DNA of 56,753 bases from Chiloscyllium plagiosum (lineage: Eukaryota). The stretch is taken from positions 1,992,229 through 2,048,981 of the forward strand of contig NC_057718.1 in assembly GCF_004010195.1 (NCBI RefSeq). The letters are read 5' to 3'. The translations under genes were made by a program, and so were the position numbers. The first letter of the stretch is position 1, and every line of letters starts with the position of its first letter. The notes beneath the pieces are model-generated. The model was not told the DNA's origin, searched no databases, and saw only the letters and a program-made list of their open reading frames with translations. This document shows, piece after piece, positions 13,850 through 49,059 of the stretch.

Positions 13850-14125
13850 TATTTTTTTTTCTAAAAGCGTGTCATTTATTTGTTATTGATCACGTTGGGT
13901 GAGATGTTTTACTCCCTTTGGATTTGAAAGTTGTGAGAGGGGGAGCACATGGAATAAACTGAGTGGCCTCCAGGCGACGTCCTGATCCCTGCCTTGCCCA
14001 GCTGAGCTGTGATTGGGTAAGGAACGGTTCCCTCAGCCTGCTCCACCATCCCCCTCCGGTCATCATTTCAACTAAACCTCACCAGAATTTGGTGCATCAG
14101 CTTGAATACTATGCTAACTTGGAGT

Positions 14126-15515
14126 GCCAGCACTCCCTCAGCACTGACCCTCTGACAATGCAGCACTCCCTCAGCACTGACCCACCGACAGTTCCGCACT
14201 CCCTCAGCACTGACCCTCTGACAGTGCGGCATTCCCTCGGCACTGACTCTCTGACAGTGCCCCCTCCCTCGGCACTGACCCTCTGACAGTGCAGCACTCC
14301 CTCAGCATTGACCCTCCCACAGTGCAGCACTCTCTCTGCACTGACCCTCTGACAGTTTGGCACTCCCTCAGTACTGACCCTCCGACAGTGAGGCACTCCC
14401 TCAGTACTGACCCTCCGACAGTGCGGTGCTCTCTCAGTACTGACCCTCCGGCAGTGCGGCCCTCCCTTAGTACTGACCCTGCAACAGTGCGGCGCTCCCT
14501 CAGTACCGACCCTCTGACAGTGCGGTGCTCCCTCAGCACTGATCCTACGACAGTGCGGCGCTCCCTCAGCACTGACCCTGCGACAGTGCGGCGCTCCCTC
14601 AATGCTGACCCTCCGACAGTGTGACACTCCCTCAGCACAGACCTTCCGACAGTACGGCACGCCCTGAGTACTGACCCTCTGACAGTGCTGCACTCTCGCA
14701 GCATTGACCCTCCGACAGTGCCCACTCCTTCAGTACTGACCCTCTGAGAGTGCGGCTCTCCCTCAGTACTGACCCTCCGACAGTGCACCTCTCCCTCAGT
14801 ACTGATCCTCTGACAGTGCAGCACTCCCTCAGTACTGACCCTCTGACAGTGCGACACTCCCTCAGCACTGACCCTCCAACAGTGCGGCACTCCCTTAGCA
14901 CTGACGCTCCGACAGTGTGGCACTCCTTCAGCACTGACCCTCCGAGAGTGCGGCTCTCCCTCAGTACTGATCCTCCGACAGTGCGACACTCCCTCAGCAC
15001 TGACCCTCCGAGAGTGCGGCACTGCCTCAGCACTGACCCTCCAACAGTGCGGCACTCCCTCAGCACTGACCCTCCGGAAGTGCGACACTCCCGCAGCACT
15101 GACCCTCCAACAGTGCGGCACTCCTTCAGCACTGACCCTCCGACAGTGCGGCTCTCCCTCAGTACTGATCCTCTGACAGTGCAGCACTCCCTCAGTACTG
15201 ACCCTCTGACAGTGCGGCACTCCCTCAGCACTGACCCTCCGACAGTGTGGCACTCCCTCAGCACTGACCCTCTGACAGTGCGGCACCCCCTGAGCACTGA
15301 CCCTCCGACAGTGCGGCACCTCCTCAGCACTGACCCTCCGACAGTGCGGCACTCCCTCAGCACTGACCCTCTGACAGTGAGGCACTCCCTCAGTACTGAC
15401 CCTCCGACAGTGCGGCACTCCCTCAGCACTGACCCTCTGACAGTGCCGCACCCCCTCAGCACTGACCCTCTGATAGTGCCGCACTCCCTCAGCACTGACC
15501 CTCTGACAGTGAGGC
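14126..15515. repeat. 33-bp minisatellite (CACTCCCTCAGCACTGACCCTCCGACAGTGCGG)n, about 42 copies
   Basis: Clear 33-nt period, which produces the repetitive 11-aa ORFs on both strands. Confidence 0.95.
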
Positions 15516-15929
15516 CCTCCTTTCGTGCTGCAGTGCCCATTGCTCTGTGATCTGATGTTGGGCTCCCGTAAAGCGTGAGAGTCTCCAGGGTTCTGTGTAT
15601 CTCCAATCGAATGTTTTATGATGGCCATGGGTTTGTCGTAACTGAGCTGGGCAGCAATTGAATTGGCTCCCTTTCTCATAGTGTTGCAGTTAGGAGGTGG
15701 GTGAGAGGAGGGGGTCACTGCCACATTACGGTGTTGCCATTGTCCTTGACAGTTGATGGTAAAGTTGGAGCCAGTGAGTGGGAGTGTGTTTGCGGTGTGG
15801 GGTCAGACCATGATGACCCCCTCCCTGTGCAGTGTTAACATTATTCAGCGTTGGGTGGAACAGTGCATTCTTGTTCACAGTTCAATTCTGAGTGAGTGCA
15901 AACTCAGCAGTTTGTTTTGGGGAACAGTA

Positions 15930-18920: not shown

Positions 18921-21900
18921 GTCTACATTCCTGTGCACCTGCCCTCTAGATCTGAATGCCAGCGTTCCATCCAAGTCAGTACAAAGTGAGTGAGTGCCAG
19001 GAGGATGAGTGAGCTGCTGAGACACAGTCTGGGCCAGTCCATGAGCTGGTGCCTGTCTGTGTAGTGAAGACTCTGTGCTGTGCCAGGGCTGCCTGAGGTG
19101 CAGCATTGAAATGCAGAGCTACACGGGAAGGGAGGTGTCATGAGGAGGTGGTGAGGCTGGTATATGTCCAGTGCCAGGGTCTGTGGATGTGGGCTACGTC
19201 CATGTGCTCATTGCCAACAGTGCATTGCCTGAGAGGCTGGTGCAGGTGCCCAGAGGAACAAGGGGTGAGCTGGAGTCACTCAGTAACTGCTTGGGGGAAA
19301 ATCTCAGCGACTAGTTTCTATCCAGGGAGGTGGGAGAATGAAAAGGGGGAACACTGACGAGTTAAGACTCAGTAATAATGGTGGTGGGTGGCAGTTGGGG
19401 AGGTGGGGTTTAGAGATAAGCAATAACTCCCGTCAGTAAACCTCCTGAGAAGCTCACCTCGGGATTCGTTGGACAATGTGACTTGGTGCCTTTGGCAATG
19501 AACCATAAACATTCATGTTTATTTATTTGTCATGTCTGCTCCATAGAATTAATCTGCACAAGATGAAAATCTTAAGTAAGCTTCCTTCTTCCTCTTGACT
19601 AGATGTCCTACATCTCTTGTCGCCCAAGGTTCCTTACCCTACCATCCCTTCCTTGCCTCAGTGGGACAAACCTACCCAGAGAAACTGAGACAACTTCAAA
19701 GGGAGGAAATCCAACAAGAAAAGACTGAGGGCCACGGATCAACCATAAATGTGAAGGACAATCAACCTTTTATCAAAAACACCGTACCGTCATCACCAAA
19801 ACCCTAAGGTACTGTGTGATACAAGGTAACTCACCTTCAGATATTGAGTTCAGATCAAAGGTTTCCCTCTCTATATTCTTTATCTACCAACAATATCTGT
19901 TCAACCGTTCATCTGTGTCCTGTCTTAATTGTGACTGATGGTCTGTGTGTGTTCAGGGCTTTTAAAACGTATCATTTCTTACATCAGAGCAGATTCAAAT
20001 TTCTCGATTTTTACCACCTTTTCTTTTACAGCGAATTACTTTACAATAAGTTGCCTTATTTGCTGTTAAAGATGAAAGCTGGTGTGCATTGTTTTATGTC
20101 AGGCCGATTGGTCACCTTGGTGGTGTGAGAAGGATCTTGTACGTTTTGGGGTGGTTTGTGTGGCAGTGGGGCACGATTCACAATGTAACTCTTCCCATTC
20201 CATCGGTTCCCTAACGTCCTTCAGGGAGGGACATACAATATGGAACAGTATAGCACAGTACAGGCCCTTCGGCCCTTGATGTTGTGCTGACCTTTCATCC
20301 TACTCTAAGATCAAACTAACCTACATGGCCTTCATTGTACTATCATCCATGGGCCTATCCAAGAGTCGCTTAAATGTCCCAAATGTTTCTGACTCTATTC
20401 CCACCGCTGGCAGTGCATTCCACACACCCACCACTCTCTGTGTAAAGGACCTCCTTCTGACATCTCCCTTAAACCTTCCAACAAACACATTAAAATGACG
20501 CCCCCTTGTGATAGCCATTTCTGCCCTGGGAAAAAAGTCTCTGGCTATCCACTCTATCTCTGCCTCTCAACATCTTGTACACCTCTATCAAGTCACCTCT
20601 CATCCTTCTTCGCTCCAGTGAGAAAAGCCCGAGCTCCCTCAACCTTTCTTCATAAGACATGCCCTCCAGTCCAGGCAGCATCCTGGGAAATCTCCTCTGC
20701 ACCCTCTCTAAAGCTTCCACATCCTTCCTATAATGAGGCGACCAGAACTGAACACAATATTCCAAGTGTCGTCTAACCAGGGCTCCACAGAGCTGCAGCA
20801 TAACCTCGCAGCTCTTAAACTCAATCCCTCTGATAATGAAAGCCAACACACCATCCGCCTTCTTAACAACCCTATCCACTTGGGTGTCAACTTTGAGGAA
20901 TCTATGGACATGGATCCCAAGATCCCTCTGTTCCTCCACACTGCCAAGAATCCTGCCTTTAACCCTGTGTTCTGCATTCAAATTCAACCTTTCAAACTAA
21001 ATCACTCCACACTTTTCCAGGTTGAACTCCATCTGCCACTTCTCAGCCCAGCTCTGTATCCTGTCAATGTCCCATTGCAACCTACAACAGCCCTCCACAC
21101 TATCCACAACTCCACCAACCATCGTGTCATTGGCAAACTTACTAACACATCCTTCCACTTCCTCATCCAAGTCAGTTGTAAAATCACAAAGAGCAGAGGT
21201 CCCAGAACCGATCCCTGTGGAACACCACTGGTCAGTGAGCTCCATGCTGAATTCTTTCCATCTACCACCACCCTCTGTCTTCCATAGGCCAGCCAGTTCT
21301 GTATCCTGTATTCCATGCCTCCTTATGTTCTGAATGAGCCTACCATGGGGAACCATACCAAACACCTTGTTAAAATCCATGTACACCATAGCCACTGCTC
21401 TACCTTCATCAATGTGTTTTGTCATATCCTCAAAGAATTCAGTAAGGTTTGTGAGGCATGACCTGTCCTTTCACAAAGTTATGCTGACTATCTCTAATCA
21501 GAAATCCTGTCTCTCAGAATCCTCCCCAATTGTTTGCCCTCACCGATGTAAGACTTTCTGGTCTGTAACTGTGAGGATGCAAAGTCCATCGCCAAAGGTG
21601 CAGCAATCTCTTCCCTCACTTCCTTTAGTAACCTCGGGTATATCCCATCTGGCCCAAAGGACTTACCTATCCTCATGTTTTTCAAAATTTTCAGCACATT
21701 CTCCTTCTTAACATCAAGCTGTTCAAGCATATCAGTCTGTTTCACGCTGTCCTCAGAAACGACAAGGTCCCTCTCAGTAGTGAATACTGAAACAAAGTAT
21801 GCATTAAGGACCTCCCCTATCTCCTCCGACTCCAGGTACAAGTTCCCTCCACTCTCCCTGATCAGTCCCACCCTCACTCTGGCCGTCCTCTTGTTCCTCA

Positions 21901-21984
21901 TGTAAGTGTAGAATACCTTAGGGTTTTCCTTAATCCTACCCACCAAGGTTCTGTTGTAGGAAAGGTTTTGGAAAGGATTATAAG

Positions 21985-22430
21985 AGATAAGATTTATAGA
22001 ACAAAGAAAATTTACAGCCCAGGAACAGGCCCTTCGGCCCTCCAAGCCTGAGCCAAACCAAATCTACTGTCTAAACCTGTTGGTCAATTCCTAAATATCT
22101 GTATCCCTCTGCTCCCTACCAACTCATACATCTGTCCAGATGTATCTTAAATGAATCTACCATGCCTGCCTCTACCACCTCTGCTGGCAACGCGTTCCAA
22201 ACGTCCACCACCTTCTGTGTTGCCGCGTGTATTCCCCCTTAAACATTCCACCTCTCACCTTGAAAGCATGACCTCTCGTTATTGAATCCTTCACCCTGGG
22301 AAAAAGCTTGTCTCTATCCACCCTGTCTATACCCTTCATGATTTTGTAAACCTCAATCAGGTCCCCCCTCAATCTCCTTTTTTCTAATGAAATTAAACCT
22401 AACCTACTCAACCTCTCTTCATAGCTAGCA
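21985..22430 (-). mobile_element. CR1 LINE 3' end nested in the older CR1
   Basis: SYEERLSRLGLISLEKRRLRGDLIEVYKIMKG. Confidence 0.85.
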
Positions 22431-23110
22431 CNNNNNNNNNNNNNNNNNNNNNNNNNNNNNNNNNNNNNNNNNNNNNNNNNNNNNNNNNNNNNNNNNNNNN
22501 NNNNNNNNNNNNNNNNNNNNNNNNNNNNNNNNNNNNNNNNNNNNNNNNNNNNNNNNNNNNNNNNNNNNNNNNNNNNNNNNNNNNNNNNNNNNNNNNNNNN
22601 NNNNNNNNNNNNNNNNNNNNNNNNNNNNNNNNNNNNNNNNNNNNNNNNNNNNNNNNNNNNNNNNNNNNNNNNNNNNNNNNNNNNNNNNNNNNNNNNNNNN
22701 NNNNNNNNNNNNNNNNNNNNNNNNNNNNNNNNNNNNNNNNNNNNNNNNNNNNNNNNNNNNNNNNNNNNNNNNNNNNNNNNNNNNNNNNNNNNNNNNNNNN
22801 NNNNNNNNNNNNNNNNNNNNNNNNNNNNNNNNNNNNNNNNNNNNNNNNNNNNNNNNNNNNNNNNNNNNNNNNNNNNNNNNNNNNNNNNNNNNNNNNNNNN
22901 NNNNNNNNNNNNNNNNNNNNNNNNNNNNNNNNNNNNNNNNNNNNNNNNNNNNNNNNNNNNNNNNNNNNNNNNNNNNNNNNNNNNNNNNNNNNNNNNNNNN
23001 NNNNNNNNNNNNNNNNNNNNNNNNNNNNNNNNNNNNNNNNNNNNNNNNNNNNNNNNNNNNNNNNNNNNNNNNNNNNNNNNNNNNNNNNNNNNNNNNNNNN
23101 NNNNNNNNNN

Positions 23111-23914
23111 AAACTGCAGAATTGGGCTGAGTGGTGGCAAATGGAGTTCAATGTAGCTAAATGTGAGGTGATGCACTTTGGTAAGAATAACAGGAAGGCA
23201 GAGTACTGGGTCAATGGAAAGATTCTTGGTAGTGTGGATGTGCAGAGGGATCTTGGAGTCCATGTACATAGGTCCCTGAAAGTTGCCACCCAGGTGGATA
23301 GTGCTGTGTTAGGTTTCATTCGTAGAGGGACTGAGTTCCGGAACCGCAATATCATGCTGCAACTATACAAAACGCTAGTGCGGCTACACTTGGAATATTG
23401 TGTGCAGTTCTGGTCGCTATATTTCAGGATGGATGTGGAAGCATTGGAAAAGATGCAGAGGAGATTTACCAGGATGTTGCCTGGTCTGGAAGGAAGGTCT
23501 TATGAGGAAAGGCAGAGAGACTTGGGTCTGTTCTCATTGGAAAGAAGAAGGCTAAGAGGGGATTTGATAGAGACATACAAGATAATCAGAGGATTAGATA
23601 GGGTAGACAGTGAAAGACATTTTCCTAGGATGATGATGTCAGCTTGTACAAGGGGGCATAACTACAAATTGAGGGGTGATTGATTTACGACTGATGCCAG
23701 AGGCAATTTCTTTACTCAGAGAGTGGTAAGGGTGTGGAATGCCCTACCTGCTAATGTAGTCAACTCAGCCACATTAGGGAGATTTAAACAATCCTTGGAT
23801 AAGCACATGGATGATGATAGGATACTGTAGGGGGACGAGCTGAGAATAGTTCACAGGTCAGCACAACATCGCGGGCCGAAGGGCCTGTTCTGCGCTGTAT
23901 TGTTCTGTGTTCTA
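23111..23914 (+). mobile_element. CR1 LINE 3' portion
   Basis: MEFNVAKCEVMHFG...LEYCVQFW...RRLRGDLIETYKI...TRGH and a tgttct tail. Confidence 0.9.
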
Positions 23915-25327
23915 AGGCTTTTCCTGCCCCTCCTAGCTGTCCGCAGACCATTCTTCAGTTCCTTCCTGGCTACCTTGCAACCCTCTAGCCCTGTCTCATC
24001 CTTGCCTCCTCAACCTTAAGTAAACATCCTTCTTCTTCTTGACGAGATGTTCCACATCCCTTGTTACCCAAGGTTCCTTCACCCTACCATCCCTTCCTTG
24101 CCTCAGTGGGACAAACCCAGCACTATCAGCAGGTGCTCCATAAACAGCCTCCACATTTCTGTCCTGCACTTCCCTGAGAATATCTGCTCCCAATTTACAC
24201 TGCACAGGTCCTGCCTAATAGCATTGTAATTTCACCACTCACCACGCCCCCCCCACAAAAGAATTAAATACTTTCCCATACTGTCTGCTCCTATCTCTCT
24301 CCATACCGATTGTAAAGGTCAGGGAGTTGTGATCACTATCACCGAAACTACCACCGAGAGATCTGACACCTGGCCTCGTTCATTGCCAACCACCAAATCC
24401 AATCTGACCTCCCCTCTAATTGGCCTATCTACAGATTGAGTCAGGAATCCTTCCTGGACACACCTGACAAAGTCTGCTCCATCCAAACTATCTGAACTAA
24501 GGAGGTTCTGATCAATATTAGAGAAATTGAAGTCACCCATTACAACAACCCTGTTACTCCTGCACCTTTCCAAAATCTGCCTCCCAATCTGCTCCTCCAT
24601 GTCTCTGTTGTTGTTGTTGGGCGGGGTTGGGGGGCAGTAGAAACCTCCCAATAAAGTGCCTGTTCCTTTCCTGTTTCTGCCTTCCATCCACACTGACTCT
24701 GTAGACAAACCCTCCTCGACGACCTCCCTTTCTGCAGCTGGGATACTATCCCTGATTAGCAATGCCACTCCCATCTCTTTTATACCTCCCTCGTCGTTCC
24801 TTTTGAAACATCTAAACCCTGGAACATCCCCCCATTCCTGCCCCTGTGATATCCAAGTGTCTGTAATGGCCACATCATCATCGTCCCAAGTACTGACCCA
24901 TACTTTAAGTTCATTACCCTTATTCCTGATACTTCTTGCATTAAAATAGACACACTACAACCTATCACACTGACTGCACCTTTGCCCCATCAACTGTCTA
25001 TCCTTCCTCACAGACTCTCTGCATGCTGTATCTACCTGTTCACTTCCTATTCCATCATCTGATCCACAGCTCCAGTTCTATCCCCCTGCCAAACTAATTT
25101 AAACCCTCCCAAAATCTGCCATCCTTAACCAGTATGGCCTACCATTGACTCCAGACCCACAGCGATGTGGTTGACCCTGAACTGCCCTTGGAAAACAGCT
25201 AAGCAAAATGTCACGTGGAGGCCCAGTGAGGGGTGAGTAAAACTTATCCCCCATTCCTTTGTAGGACATAAAGAAATGCAGAGAGCCAAAAGCAAGACTT
25301 GGCCATTTATCTACAATGTGTGAATCT

Positions 25328-25463: not shown

Positions 25464-25524
25464 ATGTTTGCAATTTTTCACCCATGGCTTGCAGGTCTAG
25501 TTCTGGGCCTCTACTCTTCAATGG
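25464..25524 (+). CDS. Ig-superfamily receptor, leader exon (MFAIFHPWLAGLVLGLYSSM-G)
   Basis: aacATG start, 20 mostly hydrophobic codons, and a phase-1 donor G|gtaagt in frame with the V1 exon. This is the typical IgSF leader arrangement. Confidence 0.8.
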
Positions 25525-25702: not shown

Positions 25703-26039
25703 GTCCAGCGCCCCACTTTTCTACTTATTACATCCCCACTTATCGAGGTGTCTTTTGTAGTCTGATCATTGTGTTTAAAGGATTAAGATTGCTTTGACCT
25801 CAAGGGAGAATGCAGCATCAGGTACCACACTGAGCCAGGAGAGTCAGTGAGGCCTGCCCTGGTGTGCAGTAGGTATCTACTCAATGACAAGGTACACGCA
25901 GCTGTATGGCACCATCATCCACACGCTCTCCTCCAAAACACTCACACTCATATCAGTGTGAGCAGGGGGTGTGAACACAGAGGGTGAGCTGTCAGTGTGA
26001 ACACGAGGTGTGAGCAGGGGATGTGAGCAGGAGGGGTAT

Positions 26040-26462
26040 GCTGGTTGGGGAATGGATGAATGATGGGGTTTGCTGATTGGTGATTGGATTAGTGATGACG
26101 TTAGCTGGTTGGGGAATGAATGAATGATGGCATCTGCTGGTTGGTGATTGGATGAGTGATGGGGTACTCTTGTTGGGGTATCAATGAATGATGAGGTACA
26201 CTGATTGGTGACTGATGGATGAGTGATGAGGTTAGCTGGTTGGGGAATGGATGAATGATGGTGTATGCTGATTGGTAATTGGATCAGTGATGACGTTAGC
26301 TGATTGGGGAATGGATGAATGATGGGGTATGCTGGTTGGTGATTGGATGAGTGATGAGGTTAGCTGGTTGGGGAATGGATGAATGATGGGGTATGCTGGT
26401 TGGTGATTGGATCAGTGATGACGTTAGCTGGTTGGGGAATGGATGAATGATGGGGTATTCTG
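26040..26462. repeat. Minisatellite of alternating 32-bp A and B units (64-bp higher-order repeat) in intron 1 of the Ig receptor
   Basis: gctggttggggaatggatgaatgatggggtat alternates with gctggttggtgattggatcagtgatgacgtta. Confidence 0.85.
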
Positions 26463-27611
26463 GAAGCTATAAACTGGCCATCACTGATTGTCGGGGATGT
26501 TAAACATCCTTGTCTCCTCCTCCTCCAACCCAACACGGATTGGGTAAAACTATTAATCTGGAGCCCTGGGCTAGTCCTCCCAAAATCAGGGATAAAATCT
26601 CACTGTGGCAGCTGGGGCAATTTAAAAATCTGTAAAAGATTCAATAATGGTGAACGTGACAATGTTGTAGAAATCCTCCTGAATTCAAAACCCTAATCCT
26701 GGGTCACTCATGTCCTTTAGGGAAGGAATCTGCCATTCTTACCTGGTCTGGCCTACACGTGACTCCAGACCCACAGCTATGTTGGCGACTCTAACTGCCC
26801 TCTCACATGACCCAGAAGGGGCATTAAGTATTGGCTTTGTCCATGATGCCGACACCCTGGATGGGAAAATGAAATGTAGCTGAGATCCTGCACGTTCAGG
26901 TCCTGTTACTGTCCTGTCAGGGTGGAGTCAGTACTCAGCAATGAGCTGGACAGAGAATGGTATTTACTGGGAACCAGGACAGGATGAACTCTTCAAACAG
27001 AGCAGTAAGAGCTGGAGAAACTCAGCAGGTCTGACAGCTTCTGGGACGGGGGAAAGAAAGAGTTAATGGTTCCAGGCTGGTTTGACACTTTCTTCAGAAT
27101 TCAAGATCATTTGATCTTCACAGTCCTTTCAATGACAATCCCAGAATGTCACAGCTGCAGGGATCAATGGATTCATTCTGACAAACACATGGGGTGTAAG
27201 GTTGGGAGGGGGTTGGGAAGGAGGTGGTGAACAAAGTAATTTCGCAATTTAAAATGTAACTGACAACAGGAACGGTTGAAATCTTTGATCCTCTGAACAA
27301 CCTTGCCGAGCTCCAGGTGAAATTACTTTATGATGTTGTCCATCTTGGGGTCAGAGTCTGGGGATGTAGCTTGTGTTTGTCCCACTCAGAGTAGAGTGGT
27401 CTTGCCCTGATTTGAGCTCAGAGACCTGGAGGAACCCCCTGGAAATGAGCCCAAGCTTTGTCTGTCAGAGCTGGTGGGATGTCAATCTCCTGAATCCAGA
27501 ATGTGCTGAGCAGCTGTAACCAGGTTCACTGTGTGGGGTCCCAGCAATACTGCGGCTATCCACCTTGGGCTTCTCAGCTTTTCTGGTCTAATGTTTATTT
27601 CCTGTGCGCAG

Positions 27612-27965
27612 GTCCTGAGGCACATCCCATTCTCGCTCAGTTCCCAAAAAATGTGAAGATACCAGAGGGTGGAACTGTGCAGATTCAGTGCCGTTTGGAG
27701 AGAAGCTTCAGAAATAACACAGTGGAAAATTACACTGTCCACTGGTACCACCCTGGAAACAAGACACGTACCTTATTGACTCATTATGTTAATGGAGTTA
27801 CTTACCGATCGAGAGAATTCTCTGAACGGTTTCAGCTTTCCAGGAATGTGTCCAGTAACAGCTACATTCTGACCATCAGAGAGCTGCAGCTCAATGACAC
27901 CAATACCTACATCTGTGGGATTTGGGGGAACGTCTTTGGGAAAGGGACTTGGCTGAATGTGACCA
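27612..27965 (+). CDS. Ig-superfamily receptor, V-set domain 1 with germline-joined J motif
   Basis: EGGTVQIQC...VHWY...RFQLSRNVSSNSYILTIRELQLNDTNTYICGIW...FGKGTWLNV. cag/gtaagt boundaries, 354 nt, phase 1-1. Confidence 0.93.
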
Positions 27966-28099
27966 GTAAGTACTTATAACATTATGTAAATTTTCTCTCA
28001 AATAATGTCATCACATAATTAATTCTTTGCAATGGTGGCTCACAGACGCCTGGCTTTTGGAAATCTGAGCAGTAAAGTACAGAATGGTACAGATTTCAG

Positions 28100-29785
28100 T
28101 ACAAACCAGGGAACAGGAGGGCAAACTCTCTGCTGGTTAGAGTCATATCTGACTCAAAGGAAGAGGGTTGTGGTTGTGGAAGGTCAGTCATTTCTGCTCC
28201 AGGACATCTCTGCAGGAGTTCCTCAGGGAGTGTTCTAGGTCCATCTTCAGCTGCTTCATCAATGACCTTCCCTCCACCATAAGGTCAGAAGTGGGGATGT
28301 TCGCTGATGATTGCACAATGTTCAGCACCATTTGTGACTCCTCAGATATTGAAGCAGTCCGTGTCTGTGGTCATGAGAGATTGAAGAACAGTTTGTTCCC
28401 CTCTGTTATCAAATTTATGAACAAACCTTTCAAGTGTTAATGTTGATGTCTGTCTCTGCAACTTCTCTGCAGCTGTAACACTGTATTCTGCACTCTGTTC
28501 TGTTACCCTGAGGTACTTAGTAAGGTATGATCTATCTGTGGAGCACACACAACAATACTTTTCACTGTATTTCAGTGCAGGTGACAAGAAAACATCATTC
28601 AGTGTCCCAATCCAACAGCCCCTGGACAATATCCAGGCTTGGGCTGACAAGTTGCAAGTAACATTCGTGACACATAAATACCAGGTTGTGACTATCATCA
28701 ATAACAGACAATCTAACCACCACCCCTTGATATTCAATGGTGTTTCTGTCACTGAATCCCCCACTATCGACATCCTGGGGGTCATCATTGACCAGAAACT
28801 CAACTGGACTCACCACATTAACTGTGGCTACAAGAGCAGGTCAGTGGCTGGGAATATTGTATTGAGTAACTCACCTCCTGACTCCCCAGAGCCTGTCCAC
28901 CACCTACAAAGCACAAGTCAGGAGTTTGATGAAATACTCCCCACTTGGAGAAAGTGAGGACTGCAGATGCTGGAGATCAGAGTCAAGAGTATTGTGCTGG
29001 AAAAGCACAGCAGGTCAGGCAGCATTCGAGAGCAGGAGAATAGACTCTGAGTTTTGGGCATTAAGGTGGTAAAAACAATGACTGCAGATGCTGGAAACCA
29101 GATTCTGGATCAGTGGTGCTGGAAGAGCACAGCAGTTCAGGCAGCATCCAAGGAGCTTCGAAATCAACGTTTCGGGCAAAAGCCCTTCATCAGGCTTTTG
29201 CCCGAAACGTCGATTTCAAAGCTCCTTGGATGCTGCCTGAACTGCTGTGCTCTTCCAGCACCACTAATCCAGTTTTGGGCATTAAGCCCTTCATCAGGAA
29301 TGAATACTCCCCACTTGCCTGGATGGGGGCAGCTCCAACAACACTCAACTACCCATACCATCCAGGACAAAGCAGCCGCTTGATTGGCACCTCACCCTCA
29401 AGCATCCACTTCCTCCACCACCGACGCTCAGTAGCAGCAGTGTGTACTATCTACAAGATGCACTGCAGAAATTCACCAAAGATCCTCAGACAGCACCTTC
29501 CAAACCCATAAATCACTTCCATCTAGAAGGCCAAGGACAGCTGATACATGGGAATACCACCCTCTGCAAATTCCCCTCTGGGCCACTCCCCATCCTGCCT
29601 TGGAAATATATCACCGTTCCTTCAGTGTCGCTGGGTCAGAATCCAGAAATTCTCTCCCTAAGGGCAATGTGGATTAACCCACAGCACATGGACTGCAGCG
29701 GTTCAAGAAAGCAGCTCACCCCCACCTTCCCAAGGGGCAACTAGGGACAGGCAATAAATGCTGGGCCCAGCCAGAGACACCCTAA
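28100..29785 (+). mobile_element. L2/CR1-group LINE 3' part with nested insertions, in the V1-V2 intron
   Basis: WLESYLTQRKRVVVV...AGVPQG, FSCFINDLP...MFADD, LDNIQAWADK, ILGVIIDQKLNW and RRSVAAVCTIYKMHC. Confidence 0.85.
29166..29193 (-). ncRNA. Minimal type I hammerhead ribozyme core
   Basis: Minus strand reads CUGAUGA-agggc-uuuu-gccc-GAAACGUU. Confidence 0.65.
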
Positions 29786-30204
29786 TTCCTGGAATCCATT
29801 GAAAGAAAAACCTAATTTCAAAAACTCATTACTGTTTTCAATCCCATCCTGACCTCACTCTTCCCCATCTCTGATCTCCACCATCCGTATGGATAAATTA
29901 ACATCCACATTCTCTTAATTCTGGACCCTTAAGCATCCCCAATTGTCACTTCTTTCCATTGGCAGCTGGTCCAAACCTTGTTTTGTAAAGTTCCTGTGGT
30001 CTTCCTATGGACACTTTGTATATAGCACCATTCATAATACCAAGAAGTTGTTGTTGATCTGACTCAGTAACAAACCAACACAGCTAGATCAGACTTCTCT
30101 CAATGTTCAGCAGCTGTCTTGTTGACACTGACCCTTTGAAAACTGACAATACTGACCTTTAGACCAGATTCTAACTTCAGTGATGGTTTTTTTCCCCCTA
30201 AAAG

Positions 30205-30549
30205 GTGCAAATGTCCCAGTCCTTCTCCAGTGTCCGAGCCTGGAACATGTCACTGAGGGTCACACTGTCCGGTTACAGTGCACCGTGAGGAATGCTACTG
30301 TGACACACACTGATGTTCACTGGTACCGGGAACAACCAGGGAATAACACAGAGTGGGTTTTAATACATGATGTGAGGAACAACACACAATGGAGCCCAGG
30401 ATTTACTGAGCGATTCCAGTCTTCCAGACACCCCTCCAATAACAGCTTCATTCTGACCATCACAAATGTGCAGCCCAGTGACACTGGGATCTATTTCTGT
30501 AAAGTGTGGGGAGACATCAGTGGGAATGGAACCCAGCTGAATGTAACAG
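30205..30549 (+). CDS. Ig-superfamily receptor, V-set domain 2 with J-like motif
   Basis: EGHTVRLQC...VHWYREQPG...RFQSSR...FILTITNVQPSDTGIYFCKVW...SGNGTQLNV. aag/gtaagt boundaries, 345 nt, phase 1-1. Confidence 0.93.
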
Positions 30550-30674: not shown

Positions 30675-30803
30675 TTCCTGCAGTGGGAATGAACAGCGAG
30701 CTGTGGAGTGTCTGGATCAGTGTGGGGGCTGTACTGGGAATTATTCTCGTCGCTGGAGCTGCTATTTGCTTCTGTATCAGACACACTCGGAAACTGTCAT
30801 CCT
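30675..30803 (+). CDS. Ig-superfamily receptor, transmembrane exon (VPAVGMNSELWSVWISVGAVLGIILVAGAAICFCIRHTRKLSS)
   Basis: Hydrophobic helix followed by a basic stop-transfer RHTRK. Acceptor tttgcag (alternative in-frame acceptor giving a start at 30684), donor gtaggt, phase 1-1. Confidence 0.88.
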
Positions 30804-31026: not shown

Positions 31027-31100
31027 CTTCTTCCCATGGTACTGGAGAACACAGCCTGATGCTGGAATATGAAAACATTTCTGCTTTTAGAAACACAAGG
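31027..31100 (+). CDS. Ig-superfamily receptor, cytoplasmic exon 1 (SSSHGTGEHSLMLEYENISAFRNTR)
   Basis: ttttgtag/gtaagt boundaries, phase 1 to 0. Contains LEYENI. Confidence 0.82.
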
Positions 31101-35670: not shown

Positions 35671-35712
35671 AAATCGGATGATCTCCAAGTTGATCCCGAT
35701 CAGATCTATGTG
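35671..35712 (+). CDS. Ig-superfamily receptor, cytoplasmic exon 2 (KSDDLQVDPDQIYV)
   Basis: ttacag/gtaagg boundaries, 42 nt, phase 0-0. Acidic residues precede the Tyr. Confidence 0.7.
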
Positions 35713-35810: not shown

Positions 35811-35849
35811 AACATGCCTCACATTGTTAAACTCCTTCCTGATGGCTGA
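35811..35849 (+). CDS. Ig-superfamily receptor, cytoplasmic exon 3 (NMPHIVKLLPDG*); the exon continues to a donor after 35853
   Basis: Long pyrimidine tract ending aag, completes YVNM. TGA at 35847-35849 followed by ccag|gtaagt. Confidence 0.6.
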   Translation, partial: NMPHIVKLLPDG

Positions 35850-46730: not shown

Positions 46731-47509
46731 CAGAGGAAACAGATCCTGAGGTCAAGAAGGAGCAGTTTAACCCACGTGACCCCATTATTCCACCCTGTTT
46801 ATCTACTCTTCCAGCTTCTTCCATTGGACAAAAGATACAAACATTTGAAAACATGTACCAACAGATTCAGACTTATGAATGGATCTCTCTTATATTTGAG
46901 CTGATCTTTCTCTGCACCTTCTCTGTAGCTGTAACATTATATTCTGCATTCTGTTCCATTTCCCTGGTGTATGGTATGATTTATCTGGATTGCACAAAAT
47001 ACAATACTTTCAACTGTATCTCAATACATTTGATAGTAACACATCAAATCAAATCAAATGATGAGTGTTTAACAGAAGGCAGTAACACAGTCTGCTGAAT
47101 AAGGTGTTATAGCCTGTTACCAGATAACAGGTTGAGACAAGTTCAAGAGAAATATTGCAAGTCTTTCAAAGAAACATTTCCAGCCTCAGTGACAACAACA
47201 AAGTTGAGAAGTGATAGCCCATTCCAGGAATGGAATAGAATAGCAATTCATTGTCACGTGTAGTTTGACCAAAACAAATACAGTGAAAATGTCAGCCCAG
47301 ATTTCTGTAAAACTACACGAGACAATAAATTACTATTCTTTTCCATTCCAGGAATGGACTATTATTTCTCAACACCTGTATTAATGATAGAAGTCAGAGA
47401 TAGGAAGAAAAAAGTAAAAATAAAACATTTCATCGCAGATCAATTTAAGTTCTGGGGAGGTTGATGAAGATGATGATCAGTGGAAATTCGGAAGCTGCTG
47501 CCAAAGAGA

Positions 47510-48865
47510 ACCCCACACTGGGCCGCACCCTCCACACCAGGCCAGGACCCTCCATACCAGGCCGGAACCCTCCACACCAGGCCAGGACCCTCCACACCAG
47601 GCCAGGACCCCCCACACCAGGCCGCGACCACCCACACCGGGCTGGGACCACCCCACACCAGGCCAGGATCCTCCACACCAGGCCAGGACCCTCCACACCA
47701 GGCCAGGACCCCCCACACAAGGCCGCGACCACCCACACCGGGCTGGGACCCCCCACACCAGGCCAGGACCCTCCACACCAGGCCAGGACACTCCACACCA
47801 GGCCAGGACCCTCCACACCAGGCCAGGATGCTCCACACCAGGCCGGGACCTCCCACACCAGGCCTGGACCCCTCACTCCAGGCCAGGACGCCCCACACCA
47901 GGCCGGGACCCTCCACACCATGCCGGGACCCCCCACACCAGGCCGGGGCCCCCCACACTAGGCCGTGACGCCCCACACCAGGCCAAGACGCCCCACACCA
48001 GGGCAGGACCCTCCACACCAGGCCGGGACCCCCCACACCGGACTGGGAACCCCACACCAGGCTGGGACCCCCCACACCAGGCCAGGATCCTCCACACCAG
48101 GCCAGGCCAGGACGCTCCACAGCAGGCCAGGACCCTCCATACCGGTCTGGGACCCTCCACACCAGGCCAGGACGCTCCACAGCAGGCCAGGACCCTCCAT
48201 ACCGGTCTGGGACCCTCCACACCAGGCCAGGACGCTCCACAGCAGGCCAGGACCCTCCATACCGGTCTGGGACCCTCCACACCAGGCCCAGGACGCCCAC
48301 AGCAGGCCAGGACCCTCCATACCGGGCTGGGACCCTCCACACCAGGCCAGGACGCTCCACACCAGGCCAGGACCCTCCACACTGGGCTGGGATCCTCCAC
48401 ACCAGGCCGGGACCCCCCACACCAGGCCAGGACGCCCCACACCAGGCCAGGACCCTCCACACCAGGCCAAGACCCTCCACACCAGTCCAGGTCCCTCCAC
48501 ATCAGGCCGGAACCCTCCACACCAGGCTGGGACTCTCCGCACCAGGCCAGGACCCTCCACACCAGGCCAGGACCCTCCACACCAGGCCAAGACCCTCCAC
48601 ACTGGGCTGGGGCTCACCACACCAGGTCGACACCCTCCACACCAGGCCGGGACTCCTCACACCAGGCTGGGATTCTCCACACCAGGCCGGGACCCTCCAC
48701 ACCAGGCCGGGACCCTCCACACCAGGCCGGGACCCTCCACACCAGGCTGGGACCCTCCACACCAGGCCGGGACCCTCCACACCAGGCCGGGACCCTCCAC
48801 ACCAGGCCGGGATCCTCCACACCAGGCCGGGCCCCTCCACACCAGGCTGGGACCTTCCACTTTGG
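47510..48865. repeat. 20-bp GC-rich minisatellite (CCACACCAGGCCAGGACCCT)n with a local 60-bp higher-order block
   Basis: 20-nt period, with three near-identical 60-mers at about 48105-48290. Confidence 0.95.
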
Positions 48866-49059
48866 GCTTGAAGCCTCCTGTTCACTGAGCCCAGGCCTGG
48901 AGAAGACACCTTCCACTGAAGACGTTATCAAAGGCAAGATAATAAATGGAAACATTTAGATAAAGGAGAGAAAGGAAAATGTAAGAAGCAGATGGAGTAG
49001 ACAAGTTCCTGGGCTGAGCAGCCCCCAGGCTGTACTGCTACCCACTGCCATGTTGCTTG

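Follow-up and report, generated by a model that had tools for sequence, protein, structure and literature searches.

Germline-joined VJ exons closest to the sigma-2 light chain in a predicted receptor gene and an apparently unnamed receptor family of cartilaginous fishes

The NITRs of bony fish are clustered, non-rearranging V or VJ receptors with inhibitory and activating forms, while PRARP and NCR3/NKp30 are non-rearranging VJ membrane proteins with a single V domain, to which PRARP adds a C1 domain and NCR3 a charged transmembrane (TM) segment. Moreover, VpreB and the Vj of marsupial TCR-mu are antigen-receptor V exons fixed in the germline. The same is described for IgM1gj with its joined sigma-2 partner in excerpts of PMC4279169, and some genes of the sigma-2 light chain (also sigma-cart, NS5 or type I) are germline-joined according to excerpts of PMC5192425 and PMC4279169; excerpts of PMC2193156 indicate that germline joining recurs in sharks. 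PRARP and NCR3/NKp30 are presented as VJ genes of the MHC in the available part of PMC10751288. Finally, the UrIg and UrIg2 genes, non-rearranging VJ-C1 genes of elasmobranchs, carry three and about nine C1 domains, respectively, and are linked to the MHC or an antigen-receptor complex (excerpts of PMC12227049).

Here, a stretch of 56,753 nucleotides from Chiloscyllium plagiosum (the window) holds a real and intact gene of an apparently unnamed chondrichthyan receptor family. The seven exons (leader-V1-V2-TM-tail) are intact, and the spliced model yields a 347-residue protein that exactly matches P0055, which is C. plagiosum LOC122553190 by its NCBI name. The product is a type I membrane protein with two fixed VJ domains and two conserved YxN tyrosine motifs, and likely a germline-encoded immune receptor. 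The exons, in window coordinates, are as follows.

25464..25524, plus strand: leader exon, split leader, phase 1 (gene model; V1 splice in contigs of runs X3 and X5)
27612..27965, plus strand: V1, a joined VJ exon from the N-terminal lineage, with a 12-residue CDR1, the junction GIWGNV and 6 N-glycan sequons
30205..30549, plus strand: V2, a joined VJ exon from the membrane-side lineage, with CDR1 and CDR2 of 8 and 7 residues, the junction KVWGDI, Ser in place of the J Phe and 6 sequons
30675..30803, plus strand: transmembrane exon without charged residue (gene model; predicted helix 261-295)
31027..31100, plus strand: cytoplasmic exon 1 with LEYENI, a YxN motif that is also loosely ITIM-like (gene model and motif comparison)
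35671..35712, plus strand: cytoplasmic exon 2 with the first half of the second motif (IYV/NM across the exon boundary, YxN; gene model and motif comparison)
35811..35849, plus strand: last coding exon including the stop (gene model)

Both V exons have AG/GT splice sites and are in frame, and V2 splices straight to the TM exon, a C1 constant domain after VJ being absent. In a related organism, contigs of two runs (X3, X5), presumably RNA, join the leader directly to V1 and so speak for splicing of an ortholog. Two single-cell runs, of which 2% and 6% were covered, contained no reads on the gene's exons. The 400 nt upstream of the leader exon contain no Ig octamer within 1 mismatch, while the octamer was found at 5/5 IgL-type loci checked in the same way. 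Elsewhere in the window, tandem repeats and LINE-like reverse transcriptase remnants (14100-15800, 25880-26500, 47420-48960 and 20400-24950) give rise to long non-genic ORFs, and six N runs occur.

The preliminary description of this DNA reported two single-exon VJ domains with very short junctions, and its coordinates, motifs and J strands were all verified. V1 and V2 share the VHWY motif, followed by FSERFQLSR..NSYILTI and DTNTYICGIWG in V1 and by FTERFQSSR..NSFILTI and DTGIYFCKVWG in V2, while the J strands FGKGTWLNVT and SGNGTQLNVT each lie inside their V exon, 6 residues after Cys104 in both domains. Pfam V-set is matched at E=1.8e-16 and 8.5e-23 by the two domains, which are 49% identical (55/112). 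The absence of an RSS at the exon ends was likewise borne out: a whole-window scan found 4 weak matches, none less than 15 kb from the V exons. Among 51 distinct exons of the array to which the gene belongs, the 6-residue junction occurs in 51/51, a GT donor at the same place in 49/51 and a weak 11-spacer RSS-like match within 150 nt in 2/51; the scan used on these exons recovered the RSS in 6/7 split Ig/TCR V control genes. The RSS-flanked split V and J that mark rearranging Ig/TCR loci are hence not a feature of the family exons.

The two domains had also been read as an internal duplication, which holds in an ancient sense but not for a closest pair, since V1 and V2 as sisters were rejected (AU p=0.004), an outcome that the preliminary description had itself named as counting against its reading and that applies in the narrow form. 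V1 clusters with the N-terminal domains found in other sharks and in rays, whereas V2 joins the membrane-side lineage; both lineages predate the shark-ray split, with no recent duplicate pair. Given two separate old lineages, the two-domain layout stems from an old duplication followed by later shuffling.

The gene sits outermost, at the lowest coordinate, in a 2.2-Mb array on contig C9, a membership absent from the preliminary description. Among 150 listed genome matches to V2, 122 fall in C9:2.02-4.26 Mb, that is, at least 122 V-exon matches, many of which carry stops and some of which are pieces of one exon. The 50 kb preceding the window gave no match to the gene's protein. In the array flanks, 70 of 129 long ORFs were scanned and comprised retroelements and one Cys-loop receptor gene only, with no syntenic marker set; the Cys-loop ligand-gated ion channel gene (L143-L144, G000:C9:4.31-4.33 Mb) lies about 55 kb past the far array end. 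A protein search retrieved 109 relatives, all named ones from sharks and rays (two records bear no species), and together with three short matches these carry 1-9 V domains per protein. The junction measures 6 residues in 269 of 310 family domains and 8 in one, with 40 unparsed. In addition, a profile search of 1.84 billion representatives returned two Callorhinchus domains with the same junction, which fall inside the family in trees, so that the family spans sharks, rays and the chimaera Callorhinchus. No description of it was found in the open literature, as distinct from subscription papers, and the available parts of PMC6795676 and PMC7677710 do not mention it.

Among the known systems, UrIg and UrIg2 (excerpts of PMC12227049) share with the family a single-exon VJ, a split leader, an elasmobranch host and repeated domains. 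The family, however, has V domains only, combined with putative signalling tails, and in the gene at hand V2 leads into the TM exon instead of three or more C1 domains. By analogy, the closest functional counterpart would be NITR, which is distant in sequence (mean 34 bits to four domains labelled NITR by inference, P0170 and P0173 among them). In contrast to NITR, the family lacks the I domain, and in its activating forms ITAM-like tails take the place of a charged TM; neither V plus I domain nor NITR-like sequence was found in this gene. NCR3/NKp30, with its single V and charged TM, differs from the two V domains and neutral TM found here, and PRARP is set apart by description, not by a named sequence.

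Outside the array, the best matches are light-chain miniclusters on contig C39, in which a V with a 12-spacer RSS and a J with a 23-spacer RSS are accompanied by a single C exon ending in Cys-stop, an octamer lies about 310 nt before V, and split and joined genes are mixed. From this organisation (excerpts of PMC5192425), the 8/7 CDR lengths, which are fixed for CDR1/CDR2 in sigma-2 according to excerpts of PMC5985310, and horn-shark and dogfish light-chain relatives, we infer that C39 is the IgL sigma-2 (NS5/type I) locus, the alignment holding no named sigma-2 sequence. The NCBI name of the C39 genes is 'lambda-1-like'. For the rows called lambda, kappa, sigma, TCR, IgH, NITR and NCR3, the labels are likewise our assumption, based on sequence and RSS spacing.

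Sigma-2 was the best match for 298/298 family domains against 61 references, 20 of which are sigma-2 and thus over-represent it. The mean best score was 91 bits (46.5% identity) for sigma-2 versus 57 for lambda, 55 for IgH and 49 bits for TCR-gamma, and neither lambda nor TCR-gamma was the closest V relative of any domain (0/298). The initial view of antigen-receptor-type VJ exons set in a predicted signalling receptor, with an Ig light chain nearest, was thereby confirmed, while the proposed Ig-lambda or TCR-gamma resemblance gave way to sigma-2 as the closest isotype. The framework FT[DE]RFQxSRD..N[SY][FY]ILTI is common to the family and sigma-2, and the Trp-Cys span equals that of sigma-2 in 215/289 family domains. 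CDR1/CDR2 measure 8/7 in V2 and 12/7 in V1, and CDR1 has 8 residues in 228/294 parsed family domains; the 8/7 combination is not diagnostic of sigma-2, because IgH and some lambda rows have it too. Taken together, the family and sigma-2 share the closest V domain, the split leader, the framework and, in most family domains, CDR1/CDR2 of 8/7. Unlike sigma-2, the family lacks the C1 domain, the RSS and the VH-pairing residues, this gene's leader lacks the octamer, and the family adds tandem V domains, a TM and a tyrosine tail on a separate chromosome-level contig (C9 versus C39).

Two other loci, L037/L061 (G000:C45:12483085) and L048/L062 (G000:C101085:14012), hold divergent germline-joined VJ genes with a single C and light-chain-like Cys-stop ends, possibly undescribed IgL sub-lineages. 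The gene on C45 possesses an octamer and in trees lies outside sigma-2 plus the family, whereas the C101085 gene, of which a Heptranchias ortholog exists, groups with sigma-2. P0171, a VJ-C1-TM protein of the frog Rhinoderma darwinii that may be PRARP-like or TCR-like and has no clear ortholog in the C. plagiosum genome, falls near sigma-2 plus the family at weak support.

Unless noted, trees were built from V only with the junction excluded (about 98-108 usable columns), with rows selected partly by hand and partly by greedy clustering at 62% identity. Tree comparison of the kind proposed in the preliminary description places the family as sister to sigma-2 in three trees at 86-98% bootstrap. 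In the 77-row tree the family clade reaches 99/94, sigma-2 97/83 and their sister relation 98/90; the corresponding values are 99/96, 95/94 and 91/87 with 45 rows, and 98/93, 95/90 and 86/65 in a 41-row V+J tree, from which IgH, TCR and sigma rows, having no joined J, were dropped and in which eight non-antigen-receptor VJ outgroup domains stand on the opposite side at 72/83. A 57-row V-only tree with distant outgroups collapsed without resolution. Family V domains do not lie inside the sigma-2 clade, the two sister groups being supported separately, and since the family is not nested, no donor gene is identified. AU tests gave p=0.36 and 0.51 for family plus sigma-2. For family plus lambda, the grouping was rejected with V+J (p=0.026), though with V only it was not (p=0.105); family plus TCR-gamma was not rejected (p=0.21). 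The midpoint root falls outside family, sigma-2 and C45. Hence, sigma-2 as the family's neighbour is clear, while the root placement is not.

The history that we favour, at a probability of roughly 0.62, is that a germline-joined sigma-2-like VJ exon was recruited early into a paired innate receptor family with paired-receptor function. In the stem of cartilaginous fishes, RAG activity in germ cells would have joined a sigma-2-like V and a J with a 6-residue junction; the joined exon would then have lost the C domain, the octamer promoter and the residues for heavy-chain pairing, and, once placed on a TM/tail module, would have been multiplied by exon and gene duplication. While IgM1gj/sigma-2, VpreB and TCR-mu Vj stay in the antigen-receptor complex, this exon would have founded a separate multigene receptor family. 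The usual story leads from innate VJ receptors to rearranging antibodies, and the favoured reading is its reverse: a light-chain exon that became fixed in the germline of the earliest cartilaginous fishes would have given rise to a megabase paired-receptor array, so that sharks would possess an independently evolved functional equivalent of the NITR cluster of teleosts. Germline RAG joining could accordingly found new gene families, and an intact VJ exon alone would be no evidence of a pre-RAG relic.

Between the two origins considered at first, recruitment of a germline-joined VJ thus stands as the favoured one, and a pre-RAG VJ lineage is less favoured, though the AU tests do not reject it (p=0.18-0.48). 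The latter, which we regard as unlikely, would have the family descend from a never-split VJ exon, with sigma-2 as the slowest-changing rearranging lineage beside it. These tests do not reject a clade that unites the family with non-antigen-receptor outgroups (p=0.178, 0.328 for V-only, 0.476 for V+J), although constraining the trees in this way costs 17.1, 6.4 and 0.4 in likelihood relative to free trees; an NCR3-like outgroup row, together with one TCR-beta row, attached inside the family in a 52-row tree, and the joined C45 and C101085 genes flank sigma-2 in trees. Such a history also agrees with sigma-2 being joined in gar, turtle and coelacanth (excerpts of PMC5985310) and with non-rearranging UrIg genes surviving only in elasmobranchs (available part of PMC12227049). 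However, it needs the sigma-2 V as sister to all other Ig and TCR, whereas in tree distance the family lies closer to sigma-2 (1.92) than to every other class (2.1-3.2), about as close as sigma-2 lies to lambda (2.02). Moreover, no bony-vertebrate domain of family-level similarity is among the best 150 of 7890 profile hits, below which single-domain members would rank. That the family, which is nearer in sequence to a rearranging receptor (46% on average to sigma-2) than any non-rearranging gene in the compared sets, is the surviving, expanded lineage of a never-split VJ exon invaded by the RAG transposon is therefore doubtful; if true, no other antigen-receptor V would be as primitive as that of sigma-2, which is joined in most lineages, and the family would be a new candidate for kinship with the gene that RAG invaded.

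Returning to the recruited sigma-2-like exon, its putative receptor role draws on ectodomain and tails. Sigma-2 conserves the VH-pairing positions, which we take to be Q38, P44, Y87 and F98 in Kabat terms, and in the family these positions are degenerate; the VL-interface Pro, found in 94% of 50 sigma-2 domains, does not rank among the top four residues in 301 family domains. Family domains carry 3.4 sequons on average, against 0.8 in sigma-2. In 17 N-terminal-type exons, dN/dS is 1.3-1.4 on the C'-C'' face (intervals include 1), 0.52 in the framework and 0.76 in CDR3, while overall dN and dS of 0.139 and 0.229 in membrane-side exons and of 0.058 and 0.091 in third-type exons reflect purifying selection. 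Fold prediction was poor from a single sequence (pLDDT 49.5) and, from a 44-row alignment, reached a mean pLDDT of 80.8, with a TM helix and two V folds joined by a short linker; a homodimer prediction for the ectodomain was uninformative at a score of 0.05. Structural matches comprised only engineered antibody constructs in Foldseek, without discrimination, and CD7, JAML, CD226, NCR3 and CD83 clusters in the ESM Atlas (0.95-0.96), which are generic V-set leads; the closest PDB sequences (best 60 per domain) were all antibody-derived and discriminate little. The domains would form glycosylated beads on a string rather than an Fv-like intrachain pair, since such a pair would need more than the roughly 4 linker residues present, and ligand contact would occur via the freed C-C'-C'' face instead of CDR3.

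A TM is present in 85/109 gene models, isoforms included, and charged in 1/85. The tails fall into ITSM/ITIM (40), ITAM-like (20), double-YxN (6), ITIM only (4), tyrosine-free (7), other (6), and long or fused types (2); among gene models, similar ectodomains thus sit on inhibitory- and activating-type tails, as in paired receptors. Members with ITIM/ITSM tails and members with ITAM-like ones would send opposing signals. The member studied here is conserved 1:1 across three shark orders, and both YxN motifs are kept in 6/6 sequences (this gene and five orthologs). In ITT-type tails, Grb2 binds to the YxN core (excerpts of PMC4263166), and the phosphorylated motif may recruit Grb2-family adaptors; the sign of this gene's signal could go either way, because the first YxN motif also fits a loose ITIM.

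The 1:1 conservation, along with purifying selection on membrane-side and third-type exons, would also suit a receptor of the same origin that serves in adhesion, in self-recognition or as a co-receptor, for instance as a surrogate light chain-like IgH partner. We consider such a role improbable, as the VH-pairing residues are degenerate and the family forms a large array with many broken copies, opposing tail types and variation concentrated on one face. Least probable is direct descent from a joined sigma-2 gene at C39 with the 6-residue junction EVWGYI, which has the right junction length, is near-identical to one family domain type (VWGYIYG) and groups with the family without AU rejection (p=0.157; p=0.118), yet is found in Chiloscyllium, Rhincodon and Stegostoma only, falls within carpet-shark sigma-2 (100/91) while the family reaches back to chimaeras, and stands among parsed sigma-2 junctions that otherwise measure 8-11 residues. 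The limitation to three genera and the nested position make its junction match a likely convergence; a 6-residue junction arises repeatedly, since the joined sigma-2 gene L031 (G000:C39:27806016) and a joined lambda gene, L044 (G000:C25:45174987), both have it.

Family exons also occur beyond the array, at L036 (G000:C34:26078293), L049 (G000:C98011:15223) and L038 (G000:C19:35346241), the last being a broken copy; two off-array exons resemble a divergent two-domain member of C. punctatum and Heterodontus (P0185, P0060). Within the array, the next gene downstream (G000:C9:2068585-2079400; L092, L002, L136) has two VJ exons, the second of which continues as an open frame of roughly 1500 residues, where an EISxxGN unit occurs 25 times (DISGNGTQLNVT). 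This unit resembles the family junction and J strand, and a similar extension is present in the skate protein P0090 (1999 aa).
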